Shown here: in pieces, positions 8,733 to 26,074 of the stretch
Position numbering within the stretch: the first letter of the stretch is position 1
Layout: every line of letters starts with the position of its first letter
Assembly: GCA_964544205.1 (NCBI GenBank)
Contig: CAZJAE010000001.1
Span: 1 to 27,460, forward strand
Length of the DNA stretch: 27,460 bases
DNA from: an uncultured archaeon
Lineage (GTDB): Archaea > Iainarchaeota > Iainarchaeia > Iainarchaeales > JAAZKV01
Direction of reading: 5' to 3'
Made by a program: the position numbers and the translations under genes
Notes under the pieces: model-generated
What the model saw: the letters and a program-made list of their open reading frames with translations, nothing else
Database searches by the model: none
Told to the model about the DNA's origin: nothing

Positions 8733-9503
8733 TTAGCGTCTATCTCTTCCGCCAAAGCTTCTTTGCCCGTCTCTTCTTCCGCCAAATCCTCGGTTTCTGT
8801 TGTCTCGTCCCCCGAATCCTCCGCCAAATCCGCCTTCTCTTCTGGGTCCGCTTCTTCCTCTAAATCCTCCGCCGCCAAATCCCCTGTCTCTTCCGCCTTC
8901 TCTTCTTTCAAATCCTCTGCCGTATCCGCCTTCTCTTGGGGCTCTTGGCTGGTATTCGTCTTCTTTTTCAAACCATTTCCTGTCTTCTACGTTTCCGCAT
9001 GATATGCACATTAGTTTTCCTGCAGAGAATTGCATTTCGCTTCGGCAGTTTGAGCAGTATGCTTTGATTATTCCTAGTCCTTTGCCTTTTGTGCTTAAAT
9101 CCACTCCGAGTTCGCTGTAGCCTACTATCTGGGCTCTTATTATGTCGCCTATTTTTACTGTTTTTTTGAGTTCGTGTATGTATTCGTTTGCCACGTTTCT
9201 TACTGCGAGTTGCGCTATTGTCTGTCCTGTGATTCTTTTTCCATTCTCGGCTTTTAGTAGTGTTATCACAGCGGTTGATTCTTTTACAAGCATTACTTTC
9301 CCGATTACTATGTCCCCGGCTCTTATTTCGTCCACTTTTTTTCCAATTATTCTTGCTTCTTTGTTAGCGTCATCATATTCCGCAACTCCTACTGCTGTTG
9401 CGAGTATTTTTCCTTCTTTTGCGTAAGTGTTTTCTCCGCTCACGTATTCTTCTTCTGTTGCTATGAATTCTCCGGGAATAATTATCCTGTTTTTTTCAGT
9501 CAT
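8733..9503 (-). CDS. csl4: Exosome RNA-binding cap protein Csl4 with RGG/FGG-rich C-terminal tail
   Basis: IIPGEFIATEEEY N-terminal domain, S1 domain (GDIVIGKV...GDIIRA) and Zn ribbon CSNC...CISC. GGTGA SD precedes the ATG at 9503. Confidence 0.95.
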   Translation of the reverse strand: MTEKNRIIIPGEFIATEEEYVSGENTYAKEGKILATAVGVAEYDDANKEARIIGKKVDEIRAGDIVIGKVMLVKESTAVITLLKAENGKRITGQTIAQLAVRNVANEYIHELKKTVKIGDIIRAQIVGYSELGVDLSTKGKGLGIIKAYCSNCRSEMQFSAGKLMCISCGNVEDRKWFEKEDEYQPRAPREGGYGRGFERREGGRDRGFGGGGFRGRSGPRREGGFGGGFGGRDNRNRGFGGRRDGQRSFGGRDRR

Positions 9504-9597
9504 TTTCTTCACCAATAGCTAATGTTTTTATACACAAAAAACAAGTGTATTTGTGTAAGGAATTGTTTTAAAGAAGACTTTTAAAGTAAGTGGTTGA

Positions 9598-10569
9598 ATG
9601 GTTTTGGAATCCATAATCGGGGAGAAGAATATTAGAAAGCGCCCTGTTTTCATCTTTTTTATTACTCTTCTTATATGCGCGGGGAGTATTTTCTTTGCGG
9701 ATAAGATGTTTCCGACGCATTCGTCTATTCTTTCGGTTGCGTTCATTACTATAGGGCTTGTTCCGCTTGTTTTCAACATTCTTTCGGACGAGGAGGCTGA
9801 CGAGGAGGTTAATCATAAGCATTTCTCCACTTTTTTTGCCCGCCATTTTAATATTATTCTTCTTTATGTCTGGATTTTTATCGGGATAATAGTTGCTTTC
9901 TCGATTTATTATGCTCTAGTGTCTCCTGCCGACAGGCCTGTATTGTTTTCGGAGCAGATTAAGTCTTTTTGCGCGATTTCGGGGACTGATTCTTGTGTGG
10001 GCGGCGTTCCTCTCTCGGTTTCGGGCATGGCTGCTTCTTTTGGCTTTGAGGCTTGCATGTCAAACAACAGCAATGTGGCTTCCTGCACGTGGTTTATTTT
10101 CACGAATAATTTTGAGGTTCTTGTCCTGACTGTTCTTCTTTCTCTTCTTTACGGCGTGGGCGCGATTTTCATGATTGCGTGGAATGCTTCTATTCTTGGA
10201 GTGTTCTTTGGCGAGATGCTTGCTGTAGGGAATCTTTCAAAGGGTTTGGGTTTGTTTCACGGGCTTTTAATCGGGCACGGTCCTCCTGAGCTTTTGGGGT
10301 ATGTTTTCGGGGCTCTTGCTGGGGCGATTCTTTCCGCGATGGTTGCAAGGGGCGATTACTCGAGTCATCATTCAGGAATAATAATTAAGGATGTAGTTTT
10401 CCTTTCCGGCCTTGCGATTTTTTCCGTCGCTTACGGCGCGGTTACTGAAGCGCTTGGGATTTTGAGAATGGGCGAGCTTTACTTTTTGATGGGTTTCTTG
10501 TACTTGGTTGTTATTATTCTCGCTGTTTTCTTTTACGGGCAGAAGAGGTTCTTAGCTCTCGGGCTCTAA
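9598..10569 (+). CDS. SpoIIM/DUF95-like polytopic membrane protein
   Basis: Multiple TM helices with IFTNN, AWNASILG and HGPPEL motifs typical of the family. Confidence 0.8.
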   Translation: MVLESIIGEKNIRKRPVFIFFITLLICAGSIFFADKMFPTHSSILSVAFITIGLVPLVFNILSDEEADEEVNHKHFSTFFARHFNIILLYVWIFIGIIVAFSIYYALVSPADRPVLFSEQIKSFCAISGTDSCVGGVPLSVSGMAASFGFEACMSNNSNVASCTWFIFTNNFEVLVLTVLLSLLYGVGAIFMIAWNASILGVFFGEMLAVGNLSKGLGLFHGLLIGHGPPELLGYVFGALAGAILSAMVARGDYSSHHSGIIIKDVVFLSGLAIFSVAYGAVTEALGILRMGELYFLMGFLYLVVIILAVFFYGQKRFLALGL

Positions 10570-10636
10570 TTGCCTTTGCCGCATTTTTTGTTTTTGCAAA
10601 ATTTGTTTTTTAAATTGTTCTTTAGGGTTTTAGTTG

Positions 10637-11455
10637 ATGGCTAAGTTTGTTAATCCGAATAAGAAGAAGGAGAAGAAGCCTTCAAAGATTGGCGGAGCAT
10701 ATGCTGCATTTAAGGAAAGGTTTTCTTTTCTCAAATGGCTTGATCCTTTCACTTATGTTGATATTTTTGTTATTCCTCATGTTAAGAAGGTTACAAAGAG
10801 CGAGACTGTGGAGTTTTTAGTCAACGCTGTTTTTGCGTTTGTCTTTGCGTGGATTATTTACACCGCTCTTGGATTGATTTTTGGTTCTTCAAGTCCTCTT
10901 GTGATTGTTTATTCTGCTTCCATGGAGCCTTCGTTTTTCAGGGGGGATGTGATGGCGCTTTCTCGGGCGAATCCTTCTGATTTTTTCGGGCCTGAAGTTT
11001 CTCTGCCTTTTCCTGTTAAGGGGAGGGGCGTGTATGAGTATCTCCAGCCGTCTTATGAGTCCGGAGTGCTTTCATCAATTTATTTTTCAGACGCGAATGT
11101 TTCAATAACTCCTGGAATTAGCGGTAATGTTGTAGTGTATACTTCTTATCCGCATGGTCTTCCAATAATTCACCGCTCGATTGCCTTGATTCATGCTTCT
11201 GACGGGGATTTTCTTTTGACTAAGGGGGATAATTCTGTGACTAATTATACTTTTGACCAGGACTGCGGTTCGCTCGTGAACGGCTCAGCTTCGCGTCCTT
11301 GCGTTACTCTTTATGCTGTTCCTTTAAGCGAGGTTGTCGGAAAGACTTTTTTTAGTATTCCAAAAATCGGGTGCGTGAAGCTCTGGCTTCTTGATGATTT
11401 TACTTCAGTTCTCGCCACTGGTTCTCTTCCGAGGGACTTTAAGGGAATCTGTTAG
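10637..11455 (+). CDS. sec11: Signal peptidase I (archaeal Sec11/S26 type)
   Basis: TM helix then SASMEPSFFRGD (catalytic Ser), PIIHR (His) and LTKGDN. Confidence 0.92.
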   Translation: MAKFVNPNKKKEKKPSKIGGAYAAFKERFSFLKWLDPFTYVDIFVIPHVKKVTKSETVEFLVNAVFAFVFAWIIYTALGLIFGSSSPLVIVYSASMEPSFFRGDVMALSRANPSDFFGPEVSLPFPVKGRGVYEYLQPSYESGVLSSIYFSDANVSITPGISGNVVVYTSYPHGLPIIHRSIALIHASDGDFLLTKGDNSVTNYTFDQDCGSLVNGSASRPCVTLYAVPLSEVVGKTFFSIPKIGCVKLWLLDDFTSVLATGSLPRDFKGIC

Positions 11456-11466
11456 AGCATTGCTTA

Positions 11467-12111
11467 TTAAGTTCGTGTTTTTATTGCAAGTCTTGTCTTT
11501 TGTTTTTTGAGAGGCGTTTTATTCAGCATCGCTTTTCGCCATTCTTTTATTGCGGCTTCGTGGTATTCTAATTTTACTCTATGGTTTGTTCTGTATTGTC
11601 TTGCAGCGTGCGTGGTTGCTTCAACCAGTTTGCTTGCTCTAATTCCTTCTTCGTATCTTCCTAAAGGGATTGCTCTTTTTTTTAGGGATTGTTCGTAGTG
11701 TTCTGATACTGTCTTCCATGGGACTATTACAAAGTCTTCTCCAAGGAGTCTGATGGTTTCTTTTAGCGCTATTTTTTGGAGTTCTCTTCCTATTCCTGTT
11801 CCGCTGAATAGTTTGAATTTGTTTTGCGCGGCGGTTCCAAAAGGTGTCAAGTATTCTTCGTATGTTTTTAGACCTGTTTTGCTCTTTCTTTGAATTGGCA
11901 TATATTCGATTATTCCAATATTTATCGCGTCTTGAACTTTTTTTCTGTTTTTAGAAATTATTTCTCTTAGTTTGGGGTTTGTGAAGAACATTCTGTCTGC
12001 GTGGCTGGCGGTTGCCAGTTCGAATACGTATTGTATTGAGCGTCCTCTGCCTTTCCGGGCGGGAACGATTATTTGTTTTACTCTTATTCCATCAAGTTGT
12101 GTTTTCGGCAT
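11467..12111 (-). CDS. Basic hypothetical protein with a GNAT motif-A-like segment
   Basis: 214-aa ORF with ATG start. FSGTGIGRELQKIAL resembles the acetyl-CoA-binding R/QxxGxG/A loop and following helix. Confidence 0.65.
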   Translation of the reverse strand: MPKTQLDGIRVKQIIVPARKGRGRSIQYVFELATASHADRMFFTNPKLREIISKNRKKVQDAINIGIIEYMPIQRKSKTGLKTYEEYLTPFGTAAQNKFKLFSGTGIGRELQKIALKETIRLLGEDFVIVPWKTVSEHYEQSLKKRAIPLGRYEEGIRASKLVEATTHAARQYRTNHRVKLEYHEAAIKEWRKAMLNKTPLKKQKTRLAIKTRT

Positions 12112-12199
12112 GATAATTTATCGCCGCAGTTTGAATATAATTATTTGTCTTTTTGTTTTATCACGCAATGTTTTTATTCTCCCTTGTCCTCTCTTGTGC

Positions 12200-12700
12200 A
12201 TGCTTGAAGGTATTGTTCCTGATTTGTCTTTTTTGACAGGCGCTTTGCTTGTCGAGTATTCTGTTCTTGCGATTGAGGTTTCTGTTGTTGTGATAATTCT
12301 CGGGTTAATTGTGATTGTTCTTGCGAGGAGGCGCTCTCTTGAGGAGAGGCATGCAGTCAAGGTTTTGTCCTCTGTTGAGAAGCTCAGGCAGGGCAAGTTT
12401 GTTTCTAAATCCTCCGAGAAGGCTTCGGTTTCTAAGTCATCAAACGGCAGGGCTCATAAGGATTCTTCTGACAAGAAGCTTGTAATTTCAAAGGCGGAGA
12501 CTTCGCTTAAAGATATGCTTGTAAAGAAGTTTAAGCCAAAGATTGAATCCCAGCTTAATACTAAAGTGGTTATTATTGATTTTAATGCGCAGAATGAGAA
12601 TTTTCTAGCGCTTGTTGAGATTAGCGGCGTTAAGCTTCTTTTGACGCTTGATTCTTCTGGCAAGATTATTGATTATAAGAAGGTTAAGCAAAACCAGTAG
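12200..12700 (+). CDS. Single-pass membrane hypothetical protein
   Basis: ATG at 12200, then a TM helix, a Ser/Lys-rich linker and a small alpha/beta C-terminal domain. The upstream ORF-track extension overlaps the opposite-strand gene. Confidence 0.7.
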   Translation: MLEGIVPDLSFLTGALLVEYSVLAIEVSVVVIILGLIVIVLARRRSLEERHAVKVLSSVEKLRQGKFVSKSSEKASVSKSSNGRAHKDSSDKKLVISKAETSLKDMLVKKFKPKIESQLNTKVVIIDFNAQNENFLALVEISGVKLLLTLDSSGKIIDYKKVKQNQ

Positions 12701-12780: not shown

Positions 12781-13524
12781 ATGGAGCTTGTTTTGAAGAA
12801 CGCGGATGTTTTTAAGAAGAGCATGGAAGCTATTGCTGTTTTGATTGACGAGGCTGAGCTTGTTGTGTCTTCTAACGGGCTTGAGCTTAAAGCGACTGAC
12901 CCGAGTCAGATTTCAATGGTTGATTTTGCAATGCCTAAGTCCGCTTTTTCAAAGTTTGATGCCAGCGATATGAGGCTTGGGCTTGACCTTGATTATTTGA
13001 ATCAGGTTCTTTCAAGAGCCGCGAGCGGGGATGAGCTTGTATTGTCTGTTGACGATAAGAAGGCTTTTTTGACTGTTGCTTTTAATGGGCACGCTAAGAG
13101 GGCTTTTCAGGTTCCTTTGATTGATATTTCTACTTCGGAGGTTCCTAATCCGAGGATTGAGTTTGACGCAGAGATGGTTGTAGCCGCAAATTTTTTGCAG
13201 AGCGCGTTTAAGGACGCTGCGCTTATCAGCTCGCATGTTGTTCTTGGTTGTTCTGAGGACAAGTTTTACGTGAAAGCGAATTCTTCTAAGGGTAATCTTA
13301 ACGAGGATGTTAAAACCAACAAGACTTCTCTTCCCGAGTTGAGGGTTAAGAGGGAGTGCAAGAGCATGTTTCCGCTTGATTATTTGCAGGATATGCTTAA
13401 GGCTGCGGGCGGGGATGTTAAGGTTAATTTGTACTTGAAGTCAAACGCGCCTGTGAGGGTTTCTTACTCTATCGGTGAAGCGGGTATTAATTATTTCCTT
13501 GCTCCAAGGATCGAATCCCAGTAA
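12781..13524 (+). CDS. pcn: DNA polymerase sliding clamp PCNA, canonical-looking copy
   Basis: LKATDPSQISMVD, LGLDLDYL, FQVPLID interdomain loop and C-terminal YFLAPRIE. Confidence 0.96.
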   Translation: MELVLKNADVFKKSMEAIAVLIDEAELVVSSNGLELKATDPSQISMVDFAMPKSAFSKFDASDMRLGLDLDYLNQVLSRAASGDELVLSVDDKKAFLTVAFNGHAKRAFQVPLIDISTSEVPNPRIEFDAEMVVAANFLQSAFKDAALISSHVVLGCSEDKFYVKANSSKGNLNEDVKTNKTSLPELRVKRECKSMFPLDYLQDMLKAAGGDVKVNLYLKSNAPVRVSYSIGEAGINYFLAPRIESQ

Positions 13525-13586: not shown

Positions 13587-13616
13587 CTTCTGAGTGTATA
13601 GTTTGTTAGTGGTTTG

Positions 13617-14333
13617 ATGCTTGAGTTGAAGAACAGCTTTTTTTTGAAATCCGCTGTGGAGTCTATTTCTTCTTTTATTCCTGAAGGGAATTTTCGTTTT
13701 TCGGATAAGGGGGTTTCTTTGAGGGCGATTGACCCAAGCCAAGTAGTGCTTGTTGATTATTTTGTCGATAAGAAGAATTTTGACAAGTACGTGATTGAGC
13801 CTAGTTTTGTCGGGCTTGATGTCGTAGAGCTTAACAGTATTTTGCAGCGCGCAATGCCTAATGACAAGCTTTTGATTGATGTTTCTGACGCCGAGCTTAA
13901 GGTTCGTTTCGAGTCCGAGCTTAAGAGGTATTTTAGGCTTCCTCTTATCGATGTTTCCGAGGGCGAGATTAAAGTTCCAGCGATTGAGTATGAGGCGAAG
14001 GTGGATATTCTTGCGCTGTCTTTTAAGGAGATTTTAAAGGATGCTTCTCTTTTCGGTTCGAGCGTGGTGCTCAAAGTTTCTGACGGAAAGTTTTTCATTG
14101 AGGCGAAGGGGGCTTCGGGTGTTATGGAGTCCGAAGCTACGCGTGTTTCAACAATCTCGACTAAGAAGGAGATTACTGCGAAGTTTTCGCTTAATTTTTT
14201 GCAGAATATAGCGCGTCAGGCGGATAATGAGAAGCATATTTCTATTGAGCTAAAGAATGACGCCGCCATGAAGGTGTCTTATTCCATTGGTCCGGGAAAG
14301 ATTGTTTTCTACCTTGCTCACATGATTTTGTAG
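13617..14333 (+). CDS. pcn: Second, divergent PCNA paralogue
   Basis: LRAIDPSQVVLVD, VGLDV, FRLPLID, KFSLNFL and FYLAHMIL. Collinear with the upstream copy over its full length. Confidence 0.93.
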   Translation: MLELKNSFFLKSAVESISSFIPEGNFRFSDKGVSLRAIDPSQVVLVDYFVDKKNFDKYVIEPSFVGLDVVELNSILQRAMPNDKLLIDVSDAELKVRFESELKRYFRLPLIDVSEGEIKVPAIEYEAKVDILALSFKEILKDASLFGSSVVLKVSDGKFFIEAKGASGVMESEATRVSTISTKKEITAKFSLNFLQNIARQADNEKHISIELKNDAAMKVSYSIGPGKIVFYLAHMIL

Positions 14334-14433: not shown

Positions 14434-15495
14434 ATGGACGGGGTTTTTTTCGCTCAGAATTTTCCTTTCTCCGCCTCTGCGCGTAATCACTTAAAGAAGC
14501 TTGATATTCAGACTAACAGTATTTCTTCTTCTGCGATTAAGCGCGCTGAGTTGTTCATCGAGAAGGCTTTTTTTTCCGATAAGGATTATGCTTATCTTAA
14601 AAGTCCTTATCCTGAGGATCAGGAGAATAACATAGTGGCGTTTCCTGTGGCGAAAATGATTGTTTCCGCGATGAATACTCCTAATATTATTCATAAGTTT
14701 GCGAATTATTTTAGAATAAGGACTTTTAGCGTGCTTCAGAATTCTCTTGAGCGGAGGAATGATGATGCCATGGCGCTTGCCTCTGATTTTGGAATTCATT
14801 TTTCTCTTTCTTCTGACGGGAATTTTTTTGAAGTGCCTCTTGTTGAGTATTTGTCCATTCATTTTATGGATGATTCTTCCCGTTTAATTAATCGTCCTCT
14901 TGAGGGCGGGGTTGTCTCGCTGAATGCCGATGCTTTTTCGCGTTTTGTTGCCGAGCTTTCTTATTCCCGAATTTTTGATTCGCTCCCTATTTCGCGGGAA
15001 TCAATTCCTAAGCCTTTGTTGCTTTCAGCAAAATCTCTTGATTCGCGTCTTGTGGTTATTGAGAAGAGGGAGTTTGACGTGAAGCTTTCCGGAAAGATTG
15101 ACCCTGAACTTTTCCCCCCTTGTCTTGCGAATGCTTATACGAATCAGCTTGCCGGCAAGAAGCTCTCGTACATGGAGCGTTTGACGCTGGGCGGTTTTTT
15201 GCACAAGCTTGGAATGTCTAAATCCGATTTGCTTGTAGTGTTTTCAAAGAGTCCTGATTATGATCGTAAGATTGCAGAGTATCATATTGACAGGATTATT
15301 GAGAAGGATCTTGACGCGCCGGGTTTTAAGAAGATTCATGACGAGTACGGGATGAAGACTAAGGATTGCGATAAGGTTGAGGGCAAGTATCGTCACCCTA
15401 TTCAGTTTTACCTTGCTCGGCTTGCAGTGAAGAACAGGATGAAGAACATGCCAAAAAATAAGCCGGTTTTTAGCGGGGGCGGTGCGAATGTTTGA
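14434..15495 (+). CDS. priL: DNA primase large subunit PriL
   Basis: N-terminal FPF, INRPLEGGVV, FPPC, FSKSPDYD and HPIQFY motifs. Lies directly upstream of priS. Confidence 0.9.
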   Translation: MDGVFFAQNFPFSASARNHLKKLDIQTNSISSSAIKRAELFIEKAFFSDKDYAYLKSPYPEDQENNIVAFPVAKMIVSAMNTPNIIHKFANYFRIRTFSVLQNSLERRNDDAMALASDFGIHFSLSSDGNFFEVPLVEYLSIHFMDDSSRLINRPLEGGVVSLNADAFSRFVAELSYSRIFDSLPISRESIPKPLLLSAKSLDSRLVVIEKREFDVKLSGKIDPELFPPCLANAYTNQLAGKKLSYMERLTLGGFLHKLGMSKSDLLVVFSKSPDYDRKIAEYHIDRIIEKDLDAPGFKKIHDEYGMKTKDCDKVEGKYRHPIQFYLARLAVKNRMKNMPKNKPVFSGGGANV

Positions 15496-16630
15496 TTTGC
15501 AGAACTCGCAGGAAGCTGTTTTTTTAAGAGAGCATTTCGCAAAGTATTATTCCTTGAATGCTGTTGAGGCAATGCCTGATCTTGCGTTGAGGGAGTTTGG
15601 CTACGGGGTTTTTAGGCGCAAGATTGCGAATAGGAATATGGCTTTTTCTTCCGCCGCCGAGATGAACTTGTTTTTGCGGGAGAGCGTTCCGATGTTTTTT
15701 TCTTATTCTAATTCTTGTTATAATTTTCCGTCCAAGACTCCTACTTTTGCAAAGGGGTGGGTGAAGTCGGATTTGATTTATGAGTTTGACGCGGACGAGC
15801 TCGGGCTTGAAGTGGAGACTATTAACGGTATTCAGTGGTTTGAGGGGAGGCATCTTGAGGAAGCTAAGCGGCAGGTGTTTCGTCTTGTTGAATTTTTGGA
15901 GAATGATTTTAGTTTTCCTCTTGACTCGCTTGCGGTTAATTTTTCAGGCAAGGCTGGTTACCATGTTCATCTTCGCTGGGATAAGATTCAGCAGTTGAAT
16001 AAGCGGGCAAGAATCGAGCTTGTGGATTATTTGACCGGGCACAACATTGATTTTGTCCATTTGGGCTTTAATTTTGACTCGCTTCAGTGTCCTCCGTATA
16101 AGGGGCTTTGGGTTAAGCGTCTTGCCGCGGGCGTGAAGGATTTTTTCGCGGGCGATTCCAAGGTTATTGCGAAAGTAATGGGCACTACTCCAAAGAAAGC
16201 CGCTTCTTTTGCTTTGCTTGGCGGAAAGATTTTTGAGATGATGCAAAAAGGGCGTCTTTTTTCTTTTGATGCGAAAAGGGATGCTGAGTTTTGGGAGAAT
16301 ATTCTTTCTCACGTGGCAAAACTTGTTTCTGTTCCGATTGACCGCCAGACGAGCACTGATTTGAATAAGATTGTGAGGGTGCCAATGACTCTTCACGGCG
16401 ATACTGGGCTTTTGGCGAAGAAGGTTTCGCTTGATTCTTTGAAGACTTTTGACCCTTACTTGGAGTCAGTTGTTTTCGGCAAGGACTTGGTGAAGGTTCG
16501 TGTGATTAAAGCGCCTAAGTTTTCGCTTGGGGGCTCTGTTTTTGGTCCTTTTGAGGATGAAGTTGTTTCGCTTCCTTTGTTTTGCGCGGTTTATCTTGTC
16601 GGAAAAGGCGCCGCGCTTCTTAAGGAATAG
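15488..16630 (+). CDS. priS: DNA primase small (catalytic) subunit PriS
   Basis: REFGY, KGWVKSDLIYEFDAD, FSGKAGYH and IDRQTSTD...RVPMTLHGDTG motifs. 8-bp overlap with the priL 3' end (ATGTTTGA). Confidence 0.94.
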   Translation: MFDLQNSQEAVFLREHFAKYYSLNAVEAMPDLALREFGYGVFRRKIANRNMAFSSAAEMNLFLRESVPMFFSYSNSCYNFPSKTPTFAKGWVKSDLIYEFDADELGLEVETINGIQWFEGRHLEEAKRQVFRLVEFLENDFSFPLDSLAVNFSGKAGYHVHLRWDKIQQLNKRARIELVDYLTGHNIDFVHLGFNFDSLQCPPYKGLWVKRLAAGVKDFFAGDSKVIAKVMGTTPKKAASFALLGGKIFEMMQKGRLFSFDAKRDAEFWENILSHVAKLVSVPIDRQTSTDLNKIVRVPMTLHGDTGLLAKKVSLDSLKTFDPYLESVVFGKDLVKVRVIKAPKFSLGGSVFGPFEDEVVSLPLFCAVYLVGKGAALLKE

Positions 16631-16727
16631 TTTCTCGGATTGCTTTTTTGTTCTTGTTTTTCAACTTTGTCTCTTTGGATTGCTTTTTAATTAGTTTTGT
16701 TGTGCTTATTTTGGGGAACGGGGTTAG

Positions 16728-17264
16728 ATGCGAATTGATTATGACGAGCTTCGCAGGATTCATAGGCTTGAGAAGAATACGTCTAAGTTAGTCGAGGTTG
16801 AGGATGATTTTATCGACTCCGTCTCTGCTTTTGTTGATGAAGAGAAGAAGAAGTATCTCGCTTCTCTTAAGAATTTTTCAGCTTCCGACGCGAGGGAGTT
16901 TACTAACTTAAAGCGCGTGATTGAAGAGATTTTCATGATGCGCGAGAAGAAGATTTTAAACAAGGCGCTTATTACTGTGCACACTAAGGAAGTAAGCGAT
17001 GATAAAATGGCGAAGCAGGAGAAGGATGTTTTTAGAAAGCTTTTGAGGACTCTTGAGGAGCATCATGACATGCATCAGGCTTTTTTCGGGGATAAGGAGA
17101 AGAAGGATGCCCAGCTTGTTTCGGTTAAGATTTTGAAGGATATTCCGACTTTTGTGGGCACGGATATGAAGGAGTACGGTCCTTTTGCGGAAGGAGCGTC
17201 TGTTGAGCTTCCTGCAAAGGTTGCGCGTTTGTTTGTTACAAGAAAAATTGCCGAAGAGAAGTAG
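16728..17264 (+). CDS. GINS complex subunit (Gins15/Gins51 type)
   Basis: Helical A domain (EIFMMREKKIL) and C-terminal B domain VKILKDIPTFVGTDMKEYGPF. Syntenic with priS. Confidence 0.9.
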   Translation: MRIDYDELRRIHRLEKNTSKLVEVEDDFIDSVSAFVDEEKKKYLASLKNFSASDAREFTNLKRVIEEIFMMREKKILNKALITVHTKEVSDDKMAKQEKDVFRKLLRTLEEHHDMHQAFFGDKEKKDAQLVSVKILKDIPTFVGTDMKEYGPFAEGASVELPAKVARLFVTRKIAEEK

Positions 17265-17334
17265 TTTTTTGATTTTTTTCCCTTGCTGGCAAGTTTTTAA
17301 GCTGATTCTTTTAGTGTTATTTTTGTTGGTTTGA

Positions 17335-18096
17335 ATGGATTTTCCTAACCGTGATGATTTTGTTGTCGTTAAAGTTAACCAGATTCTGGATTACGGCGTT
17401 TTTGTAGAGCTTTTGGAGTATAAGCACGTCAGGGGTTTTGTTCACATCAGCAATGTTTCTAGTTCTTGGGTTAAGAATATTAGAAATTTTGTGAAGATGA
17501 ATCAGGTTAGAGCCGCTAAGGTTCTTAATGTTGACAAGGAAAAGAAGCAGGTTGACCTGGCTTTTGCCGGAATTAATCCGATGAGGGAGAGGCAGGTTCT
17601 TACGCAATTTAAGCAGATTAATAGGGAAGAGAAGCTTATTGAGATTTTGTCAAAGTCTACCGGCAAGCCGTTTAATGATGTCTGGGCAGAGGTTGCGGAG
17701 CCTTTGAATCAGGAGCACGGCTCTCTTTATGAGGCTTTTGAAAAGATTGCGCTTGGTTATGATCCTTCAGCAGTGCTTGCTAAGCAGTGGGTTGGTCCTG
17801 TTAAGGATTTGGTTGAGAAGAATATTGTTGTTTCTAAAAAGGAGATTACAGGCAAGCTTAAGCTTTCCTGCGCCAAGTCAAGCGGTCTTAGCGCTGTTAA
17901 GGACGTGTTGTCCGATGCCGAGGGCGTTAAGGGGTGCGAGGTTAGTTATGCCGGCGGGGGTTTGTTTAATATTGCCTGCTCGGGTTTGACTTTTAAGGAT
18001 GCTGACAAGGTTTTGTCGTCAGTGATTGAGGGCGCTGAGAAGAAGGCTAAGAAGCTTGGCGTTTCTTTTGAGTTCACAAGGGATGAAAAGAAGTAG
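17335..18096 (+). CDS. eif2a: Translation initiation factor aIF2 alpha subunit
   Basis: S1 domain YGVFVELLEY...GFVHISNVSSSWVKNIRNFVK, followed by helical and C-terminal alpha/beta domains. Confidence 0.96.
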   Translation: MDFPNRDDFVVVKVNQILDYGVFVELLEYKHVRGFVHISNVSSSWVKNIRNFVKMNQVRAAKVLNVDKEKKQVDLAFAGINPMRERQVLTQFKQINREEKLIEILSKSTGKPFNDVWAEVAEPLNQEHGSLYEAFEKIALGYDPSAVLAKQWVGPVKDLVEKNIVVSKKEITGKLKLSCAKSSGLSAVKDVLSDAEGVKGCEVSYAGGGLFNIACSGLTFKDADKVLSSVIEGAEKKAKKLGVSFEFTRDEKK

Positions 18097-18229
18097 CCCT
18101 TTTTTTCTTTTAAAGAAAGTCTTTTTTTGTTTTGTGTTTTTAGTTTTGTGCCGCGCTTTTTTTGGCTTTTCTGTTTTATAGTTGAGCTTTTTTGTTTTGT
18201 AGTTTTTGTTTCTTAGTTTTTTTAGCGGC

Positions 18230-18997
18230 TTAGTTTTTTTGTATTAGGTATATTGCGAACAGGTTTGGGCAGTTTAGTTCGCCGGTCTTGTCTTTTTTTA
18301 TCAGTTCTGAGTGGATTTTGAGGTTGTATTTTGAAAAATCGTTTATTGAGTATTTTGTGTACTCGATTCCGGCGTTTGTCAGTATTTGCTCCATTTCTTT
18401 TTTTGTCAGGGACGCGTTTAGGGAGCGGAGGAATCTTTCTTTTTCGTGTTTGTCGTTTATTGTTGAGAGTCTTTTTTTGATTTCTTCTTCTGGCGCGTCT
18501 CTTGTCAGGTCGAATATGTATATCATTCCTCCTTTTTTTGCGAGCATTAGTATGTCGTGCATTCCATTTTCAACTTCTTTTAGGTGGTGGAATGAGTCTT
18601 TTATTATGACGACGTCGTTTTCGCCCCGCGTCGGGTGGTAGTGTATGTCTTCTACCGCGAATTTTACAGGGTATTTTTTGTATTTTTCTTTTGCGGTTTT
18701 TATGAGTTCTTCGCTCGCGTCTGTTGCGCGGATGTTTTGGTTTTTTGTCAGTTCGAAGAGCGCGGCGGCGAGTTGTCCTGCTCCGCAGGCTATTTCGAGG
18801 ATGTTATCGCTGTGCGAGGGGTTTGTTTTTTCTATTATGTCCTGGGCGACGAGCCGGTAGGTAAGTGTTCTGTCGTCTTTTCGGTTCGCGTATTTTTTTC
18901 CCTCTTCTCCTGTTATTGCTTCTTCTTTTTCAGGAAACCTTATTTTTGGGTTGAATGTGAATTTTCCGGATTTTATAGGCATTATTGTCACTGACAT
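18230..18997 (-). CDS. Class I SAM-dependent methyltransferase
   Basis: Motif I ILEIACGAGQL, ATDAS, VEDI and SFHH...KKGGMIYIFD. Confidence 0.9.
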   Translation of the reverse strand: MSVTIMPIKSGKFTFNPKIRFPEKEEAITGEEGKKYANRKDDRTLTYRLVAQDIIEKTNPSHSDNILEIACGAGQLAAALFELTKNQNIRATDASEELIKTAKEKYKKYPVKFAVEDIHYHPTRGENDVVIIKDSFHHLKEVENGMHDILMLAKKGGMIYIFDLTRDAPEEEIKKRLSTINDKHEKERFLRSLNASLTKKEMEQILTNAGIEYTKYSINDFSKYNLKIHSELIKKDKTGELNCPNLFAIYLIQKN

Positions 18998-19123
18998 ATC
19001 TGTTTCATGCTTGTGTTTTAATTACTGTCTGTGTGGTTTTTCAGGGTTTTTGGCTTTATTAATGCGTCTTCTTTTCTTTGTTTGCAAGGCACGTTTTTAT
19101 TCCTTTTCTTTCAGATATTGGTC

Positions 19124-19903
19124 ATGCCTACTAGAATTCTTGTTACTAAAAAGACTAATCTTAAGGAAGCTGTGCTTATAGTTGGTTTGCCTGGTATTGG
19201 GCTTGTTGGCAAGATTGCTGTTGATTATTTGCTCAAGCAGTTTAAGACTGAAAAGATTGCGGAGATTCTTTCGGATTCTTTTCCTCCGAGCGTGCACACC
19301 AAGGATTCCAAGGTTTTTTTGATTAAGGATGATTTGTTTCACTTTAACTATAAAGGCAAGGATTTTTTGTTCCTGGCTGGTCCTGTTCAGCCCACTCTTG
19401 ATTTTAAAGTTGGTTCTTCTCACGAGCATTACGAGTTTTCGGAGACGCTTGTTAATTATTTTAAGGGCATTGGCGTTGTTGAAATAATAACTCTCGCGGG
19501 GATTAATGTCGGGGATAATAGGTTGAATAAGAAGCCTGAAGTGATTGTTGCCGGGACTGAAGAGAGTGTTGTTGAGCTTTGGAAGAAGTTTGGTGCAAAA
19601 GAGGATAAAAAAGAGGGTTTGATTTCTGGAGCCGCTGGTCTTTTGGTCGGCATTGGAAGGCTTCATAGCATTAAGGGCGCTTGTTTGATGGGCGAGACTA
19701 ATCCTCAGCTTGTTTACGGGGATCATGGGAGCGCGAAGCAGGTAGTGGAGCTTATTTCTAAGAGGTTTAATTTTACTGTTAAGATGAAGAGCATTGAAAA
19801 GGAAGCTAAGCAGATTGAGAAGACCTTTAAGGAACTTACAAGCGGTTTAGAGCATCCGGTTGAGGATGAGCCTAAAGCGGATAATTTGAGCTATGTAAGG
19901 TAA
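19124..19903 (+). CDS. PAC2-family proteasome assembly chaperone
   Basis: VGLPGIGLVGK, IITLAG, ISGAAGLL and CLMGET motifs. ATG at 19124. Usual position downstream of aIF2-alpha. Confidence 0.92.
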   Translation: MPTRILVTKKTNLKEAVLIVGLPGIGLVGKIAVDYLLKQFKTEKIAEILSDSFPPSVHTKDSKVFLIKDDLFHFNYKGKDFLFLAGPVQPTLDFKVGSSHEHYEFSETLVNYFKGIGVVEIITLAGINVGDNRLNKKPEVIVAGTEESVVELWKKFGAKEDKKEGLISGAAGLLVGIGRLHSIKGACLMGETNPQLVYGDHGSAKQVVELISKRFNFTVKMKSIEKEAKQIEKTFKELTSGLEHPVEDEPKADNLSYVR

Positions 19904-19971
19904 GCTTTATTGCTCCGATTTTTTTTAATTTTTTTGCTTTTCTAATTTTTTCTTTTGCGAGGGTTATTTGT

Positions 19972-20580
19972 TTAGAATCCAGTAAGGCTTGTCTGGTTTA
20001 TTTTTTGAGTGTCGCCGTTTAGAAGTGTTTTTAGGTTTGTGAGGTCTTCTATTCCTTTTCTCCCGTTTCGCAGATAGTATGCCGGGTGGTAGATAAAGAA
20101 TATTTTTTTCCCCATGTGTTCTATTGTTTGCCCGACTTTCATGTTTTCTTTTCCAAATCCCCTTGCTGCGCTTTTTCCAAGGAGCACGATTACTTTTGGG
20201 TTTATTGCGTTTATCATTTTCATTGTTACGGGCAAAAAGTAGTTTATTTCGTCGGGAGTGGGCGGGCGTATTTTTTTTTCTTCGCTTAGTGGGATTATGG
20301 GCACGACGTTTATTATCGCATAATCGTCGGTTTTGAGTCCGAGTTCTTTCATCCATTCTTCAAGGAGTTTGCCGCTTCTTCCGACGAATGGTTTCCCGTT
20401 TTCGTTTTCGCTGAATCCCGGCGCTTCTCCGATGAATAGTATTTTTGCGTTTTCGTTTCCTCTTCCAAAAACTATGTGTCCGTTAGTGTCTGTAACGTTT
20501 TTGTACAGCGCGTGTTTTTTTGCGTGTTCTATTAGTTCGTTTCTGACTTGCGCGAGTCTTTGGCTTTCGTTTACTTCCAT
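19972..20580 (-). CDS. udg: Family-4-type uracil-DNA glycosylase lacking cysteines, with C-terminal PIP-like motif
   Basis: Motif A GEAPG, GKPFVGRSG, IRPPTPDE, IVLLG and motif B YHPAY. Confidence 0.92.
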   Translation of the reverse strand: MEVNESQRLAQVRNELIEHAKKHALYKNVTDTNGHIVFGRGNENAKILFIGEAPGFSENENGKPFVGRSGKLLEEWMKELGLKTDDYAIINVVPIIPLSEEKKIRPPTPDEINYFLPVTMKMINAINPKVIVLLGKSAARGFGKENMKVGQTIEHMGKKIFFIYHPAYYLRNGRKGIEDLTNLKTLLNGDTQKINQTSLTGF

Positions 20581-23488: not shown

Positions 23489-26074
23489 ATGAAAGGACTA
23501 AATGTTAAGAGAATAGCTGCTATCGGATTAGGAGCAGCTCTTGTTGGATCAGCTTTAGCACCAGGTGTTATGGCTGCAAATTTTTCCAACTTGGACACAT
23601 TGCAGAAATCTAACGTAATAGACGCTTCAGGATCTCCTGTTGTGGATATTGTTGTTGGAACAATCGGAATGCCAGAAGATGTAGTTTGGGCAGGTAACAT
23701 AGCTGCTAAAGTTGCACAGATGGCTGTAGTTCCGGCTGGCGGATCAGGATCAGTAGGCGAAAAAACTGTTACTTTAACGCTAGGTGGAAATGTAACAACA
23801 GCAGGTTCTGGAGAGACTGCGGAAGCAAAAGCTGCTTTCTTTGACAGCGAACCAGCATTTGTTGGTATTACAACTACAAGTACACAAATGCCGTCTTTGG
23901 TGAATAACCCTTCAGCAAAATATAGGTGGGGTAGCACTACTGACTCAACAACTACAGTTAGTGAAGATTTGACAGCTACAATTAATGCTAGCTTCCAGAG
24001 TACGCAGGGATCATCATATCACTCAGTAGGATCATTAATTGGTTCTATTGCAAGAGATGGGATCGCGTATAATGTAAACCTAGGCGCTGGAATTCCACTA
24101 ACATCAAACATGACTAACCTTGATGGAAACTCATCATACAGAATGCAGATTCCTTGGTTAGGAAAAGTATACACATTAGATCAGATTAATGCAACTAACA
24201 AGAGTTTGGTTTTCTATGCACAGACAACACCAATAACTCTTGATAAGGGTGAAAAACTATCTGTTAAGGCTGCAGATTCAAACAAGATGTATGATCTTGT
24301 ATTGACTGATATAACAAAAACTGCAGATAATGCAGAATATAAGGCATCATTTTCTCTAATGGATGGATCAACAACTGTTGATACACAAGACTCAATTACG
24401 TCAAATACTGACCTGAAGGACGAGTTCAGCGTAAAGCTAGACAGCGTTTACGTAACTTTCGTTGGTGCTAGTGCAACAACTTCCGGTAAGGCATATGTTT
24501 CACTAAGAACAGGAACTGACAGACTTGAGTTGAGAAACGGATACGGCTACCCATACACAGGAGACAACACGGTTGACTCAAAAGCTCAGTGGGAAGTTGT
24601 TTTCGACAGTACAACTAATGTTACAAAAATCAGTTTGAAGAATCAGTGGAGATACGATAAGTATGTTGGTGATGAAACTGACACTACTAAGTATGCTTTG
24701 ACTCCTGGCCAGGAAATTGTTTTGCCAAATAACTTCGCAAAACTAGCTTTCAATGGATTCCAGACTAAGGCTAACACTGAAGTTCAAATTGGTGCTGTTT
24801 CAGGAATATCAAACGGCGGAATTGAATATGTTGACATGAAAGGTGGAAACATAAAGGTTCCATTCTACGTTGAGACTAGTCTTGACTTCAATAAGGCAAG
24901 AACAGTTGATATCCAGGGAACAACATACACTCTATGGTTGGATCAGAACACTGCAACTAACGCTGCATTGTACTATAGAAAAGGAGATTATAGCTCAGTA
25001 ACAACTACTCCTACAGGAGCAGTTGCTGGACCATCGGTTAACGATTGGGTTGTAATCCAGAACATAAATGAGAATGCAATATCAAGAGCTGTTTCAGTTG
25101 ATCTTGGAGCAAGAGACTCGACAAACGGAATTGACTATATAGATTACAATTTCGGTTTCGATATAACTTCAGGAAATGTTGCGTTGGTATTGACTGGAAA
25201 CCAAACTTTCAGCCTATACAACAAAGCAAAGGCAGCAACTCCAAAGTTAGTGTTCCTTGATACAAACACAAACAACACAACAGGACAGCCATTGTATGTT
25301 CCTAATACACAGGACATAGCAACTATCTTCGAGGGAAATGTGCCAGCATATAACAGCAACAGATACAGCGCTGTTCATTTCCAGTACACAGACAACAATT
25401 CTGGGGTAGCAAACTTGTACACAAGAGCTACTGACGGAAGCGGAGTTTGGAACTACGAATCATTGAAGAATCCTTCATCAGGGACTTTAGTATACGGACC
25501 TACGATGGATGCAAACTACAATGTTGGTACTGGTTGGACTTCAGCTATTAGAGACGGTACAGATTACTTCAAAGAAGCATACACGCAAGATGGTACTAAA
25601 GTTGTTTCAGACAACTCAGTATTCAAATTGACTGTTCCAGACGAGCAGGCACTTCTTGAAGCATACTTGGGCGCTACTGCTGAATCAACAGTTGCTGTTG
25701 GTGGAAAAGAATTTACAGGAGTAAAAGAGGGAGACACAGTGTCAAACTCAGGCACAACTGTAACTGTTACTGGTATAACAGGCTCAGCTGCTGCAGGCTC
25801 AGGAGTAACTGTAACTAAGGTTGCAAACCTAGTAAAGTCAGACAAGATGTCAGCATACGGTAAATCAATCCTTGTTGGCGGATGGATGGCTAACACTAAA
25901 GTATCAAAGTCAATGATGGTTGGCGGAGAGACTCTAGAAAGCAGACTAACTGCTGCTGGAGACTACGTTTCAGCTGTTCTTGAGGACGGAAGCATCGTTG
26001 TTGCAGGATGGACTGCGGACGACACAGCTACTGCTGCTCAGGCATTGATCTCAGCTTTAGACGGTCTACAGTAA
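23489..26074 (+). CDS. S-layer (surface layer) glycoprotein
   Basis: Sec signal MKGLNVKRIAAIGLGAALVGSALAPGVMA, DVVWAGNIAA near the N-terminus, C-terminal ILVGGWMAN and IVVAGWTADDT motifs of Methanococcales-like S-layer termini. Thr/Asn-rich with many N-x-S/T sequons. Confidence 0.9.
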   Translation: MKGLNVKRIAAIGLGAALVGSALAPGVMAANFSNLDTLQKSNVIDASGSPVVDIVVGTIGMPEDVVWAGNIAAKVAQMAVVPAGGSGSVGEKTVTLTLGGNVTTAGSGETAEAKAAFFDSEPAFVGITTTSTQMPSLVNNPSAKYRWGSTTDSTTTVSEDLTATINASFQSTQGSSYHSVGSLIGSIARDGIAYNVNLGAGIPLTSNMTNLDGNSSYRMQIPWLGKVYTLDQINATNKSLVFYAQTTPITLDKGEKLSVKAADSNKMYDLVLTDITKTADNAEYKASFSLMDGSTTVDTQDSITSNTDLKDEFSVKLDSVYVTFVGASATTSGKAYVSLRTGTDRLELRNGYGYPYTGDNTVDSKAQWEVVFDSTTNVTKISLKNQWRYDKYVGDETDTTKYALTPGQEIVLPNNFAKLAFNGFQTKANTEVQIGAVSGISNGGIEYVDMKGGNIKVPFYVETSLDFNKARTVDIQGTTYTLWLDQNTATNAALYYRKGDYSSVTTTPTGAVAGPSVNDWVVIQNINENAISRAVSVDLGARDSTNGIDYIDYNFGFDITSGNVALVLTGNQTFSLYNKAKAATPKLVFLDTNTNNTTGQPLYVPNTQDIATIFEGNVPAYNSNRYSAVHFQYTDNNSGVANLYTRATDGSGVWNYESLKNPSSGTLVYGPTMDANYNVGTGWTSAIRDGTDYFKEAYTQDGTKVVSDNSVFKLTVPDEQALLEAYLGATAESTVAVGGKEFTGVKEGDTVSNSGTTVTVTGITGSAAAGSGVTVTKVANLVKSDKMSAYGKSILVGGWMANTKVSKSMMVGGETLESRLTAAGDYVSAVLEDGSIVVAGWTADDTATAAQALISALDGLQ

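Follow-up and report, generated by a model that had tools for sequence, protein, structure and literature searches.

The window (the whole stretch of 27,460 nucleotides analysed here, positions 1 to 27,460 of contig CAZJAE010000001.1 in the assembly GCA_964544205.1) carries the genes for three enzymes of DNA replication and repair, namely the large (regulatory) subunit PriL of DNA primase, its catalytic subunit PriS and a family-4-type uracil-DNA glycosylase (UDG), all of which are devoid of the canonical cysteine metal sites of their families. It is considered likely that structural metal sites were dropped stepwise in this lineage and replaced by protein packing, with the enzymes staying functional. 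The first-pass annotation of the window had proposed an iron-sulphur (Fe-S)-independent DNA metabolism in one lineage, perhaps following the loss of cluster biogenesis. The lack of the canonical cysteine sites on which this proposal was built stands for PriL, PriS and the family-4 UDG; a single coordinated event is unsupported, and the losses mapped across the Iainarchaeota loci appear as three nested events at three phylogenetic depths.

The window comes from a small archaeon of symbiotic type, and the closest homologues of its proteins were labelled Iainarchaeota / Diapherotrites (DPANN). The comparison covered Iainarchaeota loci from 39 species, together with about 340 homologues. The species-representative loci were gathered by using a PriL profile, and PriL, PriS, UDG and Csl4 were taken from each. 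Gene identities were assigned with Pfam and NCBIfam (PF04104 for PriL, PF01896 for PriS, PF03167 and TIGR00758 for UDG, NF034126 for Csl4). The cysteine counts of the first-pass annotation were reproduced: PriL (353 aa) has only C230, within FPPC, and C312, UDG (202 aa) has none, PriS has three scattered cysteines (79, 203 and 368) with none in the zinc region, and the zinc ribbon of Csl4 is intact, with four cysteines arranged as CxxC-x12-CxxC (C154, C157, C170 and C173). The Csl4 gene (260 aa) lies at 8733-9515 on the minus strand; its ribbon (8997-9056, minus strand) was used as an internal control, and all four columns were cysteine in 24 of the 24 loci. The raw counts were rejected as evidence, being statistically unremarkable at the cysteine content of the window (0.77% of residues; probability of about 0.21 for no cysteine in 202 aa and of about 0.49 for two or fewer in 353 aa). 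The absence of cysteine at the ligand columns, and not the low count, was therefore taken as the signal.

Ligand positions of PriL

The priL gene (353 aa, 14434-15495, plus strand) was identified by PF04104 (E = 4.7e-15) and the NCBIfam PriL model, together with an AlphaFold2 (AF2) model and Foldseek matches to 5of3_B and 1zt2. The PriL family profile matched 5of3_B and 1zt2_B, and phmmer searches of PDB with the single sequences of the window PriL and of a relative with all four cysteines gave nothing useful. The four cysteine columns of 73 PriL homologues correspond to residues 230, 298, 312 and 317 of the window protein, which reads C, F, C and G at these positions, respectively; C230 was aligned with C287 of human p58 through the family profile. 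Ligand 1 is retained as C230 (15121-15123, plus strand; cysteine in 64 of the 73 homologues). Ligand 2, cysteine in 53/73 and phenylalanine in the clade of the window, is replaced by F298, which is followed by KKIH with H302 (15325-15339, plus strand). KKIH contains a one-residue insertion specific to the window clade, with H302 invariant in 8/8 sequences of the C-F-C-G/E pattern. Ligand 3 is retained as C312 and ligand 4 is replaced by G317 (15367-15384 for both, plus strand; cysteine in 63/73 and 56/73, respectively). The background given in the first-pass annotation, that archaeal PriL and family-4 UDG bind [4Fe-4S] through four cysteines, was found to be correct (PMC5449639, PMC3914693). 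The window PriL's C-terminal domain, reading C-F-C-G, does not have these four ligands, and the two replacements (C to F and C to G) very probably abolish its [4Fe-4S] cluster.

Five groups were distinguished among the 73 homologues according to their ligand columns. The full C-C-C-C pattern was found in 52 of them (26 of 40 loci), the C-F-C-G/E pattern in eight, which form the window clade and include the 946-kb relative (L001/L003), the C-H-C-C pattern in three, from Ca. Forterrea, and an S-Y/F-E/Q/D pattern ending in a gap or G in another eight; the other two were one fragment (S---) and one C-C-gap-C sequence. The near-complete genome GCA_964551375.1, with the 946-kb contig CAZKBG010000001.1 and a PriL of 85% identity to that of the window, belongs to the C-F-C-G clade. 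Genomes of the S-Y-E clade include CAYODU01 and CAZHNO01, and C-C-C-C sisters include JBAZKP01 and JBAZYC01 as well as the loci L043 and L004. The C-H-C-C sequences (L010 and L017 of Ca. Forterrea, P0143/P0145/P0146) are monophyletic with a bootstrap of 100/100, and the histidine at ligand 2 may form a 3Cys-1His cluster site, a possible intermediate toward loss.

For the estimation of how rare such replacements are, HMMER was run with the PriL profile over 1.84 billion representative proteins, from which 150 diverse PriLs (50%-identity representatives) were obtained. All four cysteines were kept in 145 of about 148 full-length representatives, and the other three carried a single C-to-S/R replacement at ligand 2. 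On the sequences compared, Iainarchaeota is an unusual hotspot of apparent PriL ligand loss.

The window protein shares with the [4Fe-4S] PriLs (S. solfataricus 5of3, human p58C and N. equitans NEQ395) the two-domain helical architecture, FPPC, the adjacency of priS, and conserved basic and aromatic residues of the C-terminal domain. It differs from them in having Phe and Gly at ligands 2 and 4, a natural and lineage-fixed condition as compared with the engineered mutants and truncations published so far.

A remodelled site was weighed as an alternative, in which metal would still be bound by C230 and C312 with the help of H302, of an acidic residue (D313 or E316) or of both; such a centre might be mononuclear (Zn/Fe), or else a [2Fe-2S] or [4Fe-4S] cluster with mixed ligation. 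The invariance of C230, C312 and the inserted H302 (FKKIH[D/E]EYG) in 8/8 sequences over a tree whose length is 1.3 substitutions per site is consistent with such a site, and the related C-H-C-C clade (L010, L017, P0143) with His at ligand 2 provides a plausible intermediate. However, 51% of the C-terminal domain columns are invariant anyway, so the retention is statistically unremarkable; Phe and Gly at two ligand positions are incapable of metal coordination, and the S-Y-E-gap clade, which has no cysteine there, is equally conserved. A remodelled metal site is considered unlikely.

The PriS zinc module and the cysteine-free UDG

The priS gene (382 aa, 15482-16630, plus strand) was identified by PF01896 and the NCBIfam PriS model and matches 1zt2_A and 1v33_A. 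The core motifs of archaeo-eukaryotic primases were found in it, with EFDAD, FSGKAGYHVHL and IVRVPMTLHG aligned with both structures. The Cys/His zinc-binding module expected after the DxD motif is absent. At the deletion site (residues 103-124, 15788-15853, plus strand), DADELGLEVETING is directly followed by IQWFEGRH, with no cysteine in the window protein. Relative to basal relatives about 28 residues are deleted, with the junction after G116, and the zinc knuckle C-x-H...C-x2-C of P. horikoshii ('rrCeHepgtvCpiC') was aligned with 'vetingiqwfegrh' of the window. Three states were recorded: a module of 6-7 cysteines (C..H..W.C...CPxC...CxxC) in outgroup and basal loci, a clean 28-residue deletion in a large clade containing the window, and a separate clade which keeps the insert with only two cysteines, four of six being lost. 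Roughly two thirds of the loci are without the zinc module.

Two irregular PriS genes were observed besides. In L042 (JGI 3300029286, a 47.7-kb contig of a C-F-C-G relative), at 10001-12371, PriL was called with an extended length of 412 aa and PriS is split into genes of 48 aa and 292 aa, which could be due to a frameshift, an assembly error or a real disruption. In L039 (11024-13781), a PriS-like open reading frame (ORF) of 912 aa was found, possibly a fusion.

The UDG gene (202 aa, 19972-20580, minus strand) was identified by PF03167 (E = 1e-31), TIGR00758, PDB matches and an AF2 model; phmmer matched 1l9g, 1ui0 and 4zbx at E = 1e-19 to 1e-24. Its scores are below the curated cut-offs of both TIGR00758 (113.6 bits versus 125.3) and NF040953 (101.8 versus 250). 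The definitions of the family-4 motifs were taken from PMC5449639 (motif A, GE(A/G)PG; motif B, HP(A/S)xxL), and both motifs were found: GEAPG at residues 51-55 (20416-20430, minus strand), invariant in an alignment of 35 sequences, and HPAYYLR at residues 165-171 (20068-20088, minus strand), in which H165, P166 and R171 are invariant. As compared with the canonical family-4 enzymes (T. thermophilus UDGA 1ui0, T. maritima TM0511 1l9g and S. tokodaii 4zbx), the window UDG has 40-42% identity over the aligned core and shares GEAPG, the Phe of PFVG, the Asn before ligand 3 and HPAYYLR, but all four cluster cysteines are replaced, by A, H, I and F, respectively, so that the four-cysteine [4Fe-4S] site of the family is missing. 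The N-terminal CxxC of ligands 1 and 2 is replaced by A20...H23 (20512-20523, minus strand), H23 being aligned with a cysteine of S. tokodaii and A20 being the probable position of ligand 1 according to the CxxC spacing. I95 (20296-20298, minus strand) stands in place of ligand 3 (KCRPP to PIIPL) and F115 (20236-20238, minus strand) in place of ligand 4, both of which are cysteine in the T. thermophilus, T. maritima and S. tokodaii enzymes.

The same replacements were found in the relatives. Among the 120 best UDG homologues (at least 49% identity), none of which has more than two cysteines, 93 carry H and 25 carry S at ligand 2, 106 carry I and 10 carry M at ligand 3, and all 120 carry F at ligand 4. 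In all 31 UDG-carrying Iainarchaeota loci, ligand 3 is I or M, ligand 4 is F, and the protein contains 0-1 cysteine in total. A search seeded from the most divergent UDG gave 14 further proteins (P0342-P0355) with the same H/I/F pattern, one of them labelled Woesearchaeota. Because the pattern is shared by the 31 loci and a Woesearchaeota-labelled relative, the proteins appear to form a subfamily of family-4 UDGs without a cluster that is old and spans several DPANN lineages. Many stand-alone relatives of 190-205 aa are annotated as 'DNA polymerase' by the Joint Genome Institute (JGI), which is misleading; this label is a legacy of the old family name 'phage SPO1 DNA polymerase-related'.

Probable retention of function and proposed order of the losses

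PriL, PriS and UDG of the window look functional, because catalytic motifs are conserved, nonsynonymous divergence (dN) is low against saturated synonymous divergence (dS), and the predicted folds are confident. In PriL, FPP, R249, Y283, K300 and H321-P322 are invariant, and in UDG, GEAPG, F65 (of PFVG), N91 and H165-P166 are invariant in relatives. The dN/dS values estimated by the NG86 method for the window versus L001 (85% identical) were 0.066 for PriL, 0.13 for PriS and 0.095 for UDG, and dN was lower for PriL's C-terminal domain (0.065) than for its N-terminal domain (0.133). The AF2 model of PriL has a predicted local distance difference test score (pLDDT) of 86.3, with 82-94 for the C-terminal domain, and S. 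solfataricus PriL (5of3_B) was its top Foldseek match. The AF2 model of UDG has a pLDDT of 92.7 and its best structural matches are family-4 UDGs, with template-modelling (TM) scores of 0.72-0.78. Activity of the three proteins would be expected from these sequence features.

It was also considered whether the PriL C-terminal domain, PriS or UDG is decaying and non-functional, with its role taken by another factor such as a PriX-like protein or another glycosylase. The scores of TIGR00758 and of the NCBIfam PriL and PriS models under their curated cut-offs would agree with this, as would the two-piece PriS of L042. Against it, the ORFs are unbroken and keep their synteny across 39 species, amino-acid divergence is low relative to the saturated dS, PriL's C-terminal domain is more conserved than its N-terminal domain, the catalytic motifs are invariant and the folds are predicted confidently; in addition, the 73 PriL matches include no second PriL from the 946-kb contig. 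Gene decay is accordingly held to be very unlikely.

For the timing of the losses, a concatenated PriL+PriS+GINS tree was constructed by using the neighbour-joining (NJ) method with the metal regions masked. The metal-site states were placed by this tree in nested or separate clades. The basal loci (L031-L033 and L023) have C-C-C-C PriL and PriS with six cysteines, yet their UDG is cysteine-free. The large clade combines the PriS deletion with C-C-C-C PriL. PriL reads C-F-C-G in the window, L003 and L005, and S-Y/F-E-gap in a monophyletic group of seven loci. L043, which shares its sample with a C-F-C-G relative, has C-C-C-C PriL, zinc-less PriS and UDG with no cysteine. Loss of PriL ligands is thus limited to small subclades, and C-C-C-C co-occurs with cysteine-free UDG and zinc-less PriS in the same genomes. 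At least two losses of PriL ligands took place, one leading to C-F-C-G and the other to S-Y-E-gap. This minimum is based on the distinct substitution patterns and the good separation of the clades, and no more is claimed because the NJ bootstrap of PriL is poorly resolved.

These depths bear on the possibility that the lineage lost Fe-S biogenesis (SufBC/SMS, Isc or Nif) and its DNA enzymes shed their cluster ligands in a coordinated way. All three enzymes of this genome being without cysteine metal sites is what such a loss would produce, and it would also suit the hotspot in Iainarchaeota, with at least two PriL losses as compared with no multi-ligand loss in about 145 other representatives. 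Neither an Fe-S protein nor a gene resembling SufC turned up in the window of about 27 kb or in the closest relative's flanks, a sample that is far too small to be telling. Pfam scans of all window ORFs likewise gave no Fe-S biogenesis or client gene, about 27 kb being too small a sample. Scans of 41 loci (20-kb pieces) for ferredoxin, radical-SAM and SufC motifs gave only one ferredoxin, in the distant L039; the cysteine-rich ORFs inspected in the loci were only secreted cysteine-rich proteins and endonuclease Q (EndoQ)-like ORFs of outgroup loci, and no Fe-S genes were found in the neighbourhoods of the relatives P0123 and P0014.

On the other side, genomes with clusterless UDG and zinc-less PriS keep the PriL cysteine quartet, and relatives with this conserved quartet presumably still make clusters. 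The change in PriS concerns zinc and not Fe-S, two ligand cysteines are kept by PriL of the C-F-C-G clade, and clusterless UDG also occurs in a genome labelled Woesearchaeota. Moreover, active [FeFe] hydrogenases, which contain [4Fe-4S] clusters and the H-cluster, are encoded by Ca. Iainarchaeum and by Ca. Forterrea, the genus to which locus L010 belongs (PMC11216029). Loss of Fe-S biogenesis across the phylum looks unlikely, coordinated shedding after such a loss is rated as improbable, and a global loss of biogenesis is unnecessary to account for the pattern.

The stepwise replacement of structural metal sites, regarded as dispensable, by ordinary protein packing is preferred instead. In the first step, the family-4 UDG would have shed all four [4Fe-4S] cysteines early, leaving A/H at the N-terminal pair and the bulky I95 and F115, the latter invariant, at the other former ligand positions, which would explain a clusterless UDG common to all Iainarchaeota found and to at least one other DPANN lineage. 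In the second step, the deletion of about 28 residues would have removed the Cys/His zinc module of PriS later, in a large Iainarchaeota subclade. In the third and most recent step, the small subclade of the window would have replaced two of the four PriL ligands (C to F and C to G). In a separate Iainarchaeota clade, the whole set of four PriL ligands (S-Y-E-gap) and four of the six cysteines of PriS would have disappeared independently. Phe, Ile and Tyr as replacement residues agree with the filling of the cavity that has been proposed for clusterless MutY. The driver may have been relaxed constraint or, in a reduced genome, selection to save on Fe-S and Zn sites, which are O2-labile and costly.

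Several points weigh against this reading. The absence of a bound cluster is predicted from sequence only. Two PriL ligand cysteines are kept in all eight members of the clade, beside a clade-specific His, and a residual or alternative PriL metal centre may exist. A lineage-specific loss of biogenesis may have triggered the last (PriL) step. The dN/dS values are only qualitative, since dS is saturated (>1). The PriL-only NJ tree is poorly resolved in the large clade, with a bootstrap of 3/100 for the monophyly of C-F-C-G, and a C-C-C-C and an S-Y-E-G sequence lie near C-F-C-G in it; the exact number and order of the PriL events are uncertain.

The locus, known systems and significance

The priL and priS genes are co-oriented with an overlap of 14 nucleotides, an arrangement kept in the 39 loci, across which the gene order PCNA-PriL-PriS-Gins51-eIF2a-PAC2-UDG is also kept. 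Downstream of priS in the window are the genes for Gins51 (16728-17264, plus strand), eIF2-alpha (17335-18096, plus strand), an S-adenosylmethionine (SAM) methyltransferase (18230-18997, minus strand) and a PAC2 protein (19031-19903, plus strand). Two PCNA genes, Csl4 and RpoL are upstream of priL. The tandem PCNA genes (12781-13524 and 13614-14333) lie directly 5' of priL and the pair is kept in relatives; in some loci, e.g. a 138-kb contig of the S-Y-E clade, an ABC transporter pair is located between them. Between eIF2-alpha and PAC2, the window and L042 carry the SAM-methyltransferase gene, which L043 and the closest relative, L001, do not have at this place, with synteny otherwise conserved. 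Near priL in the outgroup loci L038 (3660-4953), L039 (3247-4600) and L041 (1857-3150) there are ORFs of some 400-420 aa containing a CxxC...CxxC pair; they resemble endonuclease Q by eye only, and they are not near priL in the main Iainarchaeota clade.

The plus strand of the window (1-27460) has a very strong compositional bias (T 35.9%, A 22.6%, G 24.2% and C 17.3%), with an AT skew of about -0.1 to -0.4 and a GC skew of mostly +0.13 to +0.28 over 1-24 kb (-0.03 at 8-10 kb). The skew spans genes of both orientations, T exceeding A on the coding strand even for plus-strand genes, and is reversed (A>T) in the last windows of the scan, together with the S-layer gene at 23489-26074. It looks like a strong replication-strand mutational asymmetry (G+T-rich, deamination-type), which is unusual in an archaeon. 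The window sequence was present in sludge-metagenome runs, and an exact look-up of the terminal genes of the 27.5-kb window gave no further contig.

Whether the primase [4Fe-4S] cluster is a redox switch or structural and dispensable is disputed. [quoted passage not shown] Cluster-free relatives of the PriL C-terminal domain, PriX and PriCT, support priming (PMC5700102, PMC5862659). PriX, PriCT-1 and PriCT-2 are helical, are related to part of that domain and serve initiation without Fe-S, as is proposed here for the window protein; unlike it, an orthologous full-length PriL, they are separate proteins or domains, mostly of mobile elements and Sulfolobales, and correspond to the N-terminal sub-domain only.

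For the UDG, Cys-to-Ser variants of family 4 retain about 60% activity (PMC5295032). A parallel in another family is clusterless MutY/MutYX, a [4Fe-4S]-defined family of repair glycosylases in which clusterless lineages without all Cys ligands arose repeatedly with activity kept, and bulky residues were proposed to fill the cavity (PMC12631127). MutY differs in its helix-hairpin-helix fold from the alpha/beta fold of UDG, and MutYX re-organised its cluster motif and gained a new domain, whereas the length and architecture of the window UDG are unchanged. BdiUng (5gn2) has a family-4-like UDG fold and is documented as clusterless (PMC5449639); it has family-1-type motifs and about 16% identity to the window UDG, in contrast to the family-4 motifs of the latter. 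The phage UDG-PolA fusion 9qhs (PMC10201439) matches by sequence and structure with its N-terminal UDG domain; such domains are fused to polymerase and often catalytically dead, and the window UDG is stand-alone. No earlier description of a clusterless cellular PriL or a clusterless family-4 UDG was found in a literature search of limited extent.

On balance, it appears probable, if with some reserve, that at least two Iainarchaeota lineages replicate their chromosomes with clusterless PriL and zinc-less PriS, and that several DPANN lineages have a clusterless family-4 UDG. The co-occurrence of ligand losses in one genome need not signal a lost cofactor biogenesis, which is a caution for similar cases. 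The cysteine-free UDG subfamily would mean that evolution can dispense with the 'characteristic' cluster of family 4, just as it did in clusterless MutY. The most interesting element is the series of naturally clusterless PriLs, which is directly testable by biochemistry, the matched sister enzymes (C-C-C-C, C-H-C-C, C-F-C-G and S-Y-E-gap) being suited to tests of the purpose of the cluster. If true, it would show in vivo, by a natural case, that primase can do without its 'highly conserved' cluster, and a graded series in one phylum from four Cys through three Cys plus His and two Cys to none, with PriS having zinc or not, would argue against a mechanistically essential role of the cluster in replication.

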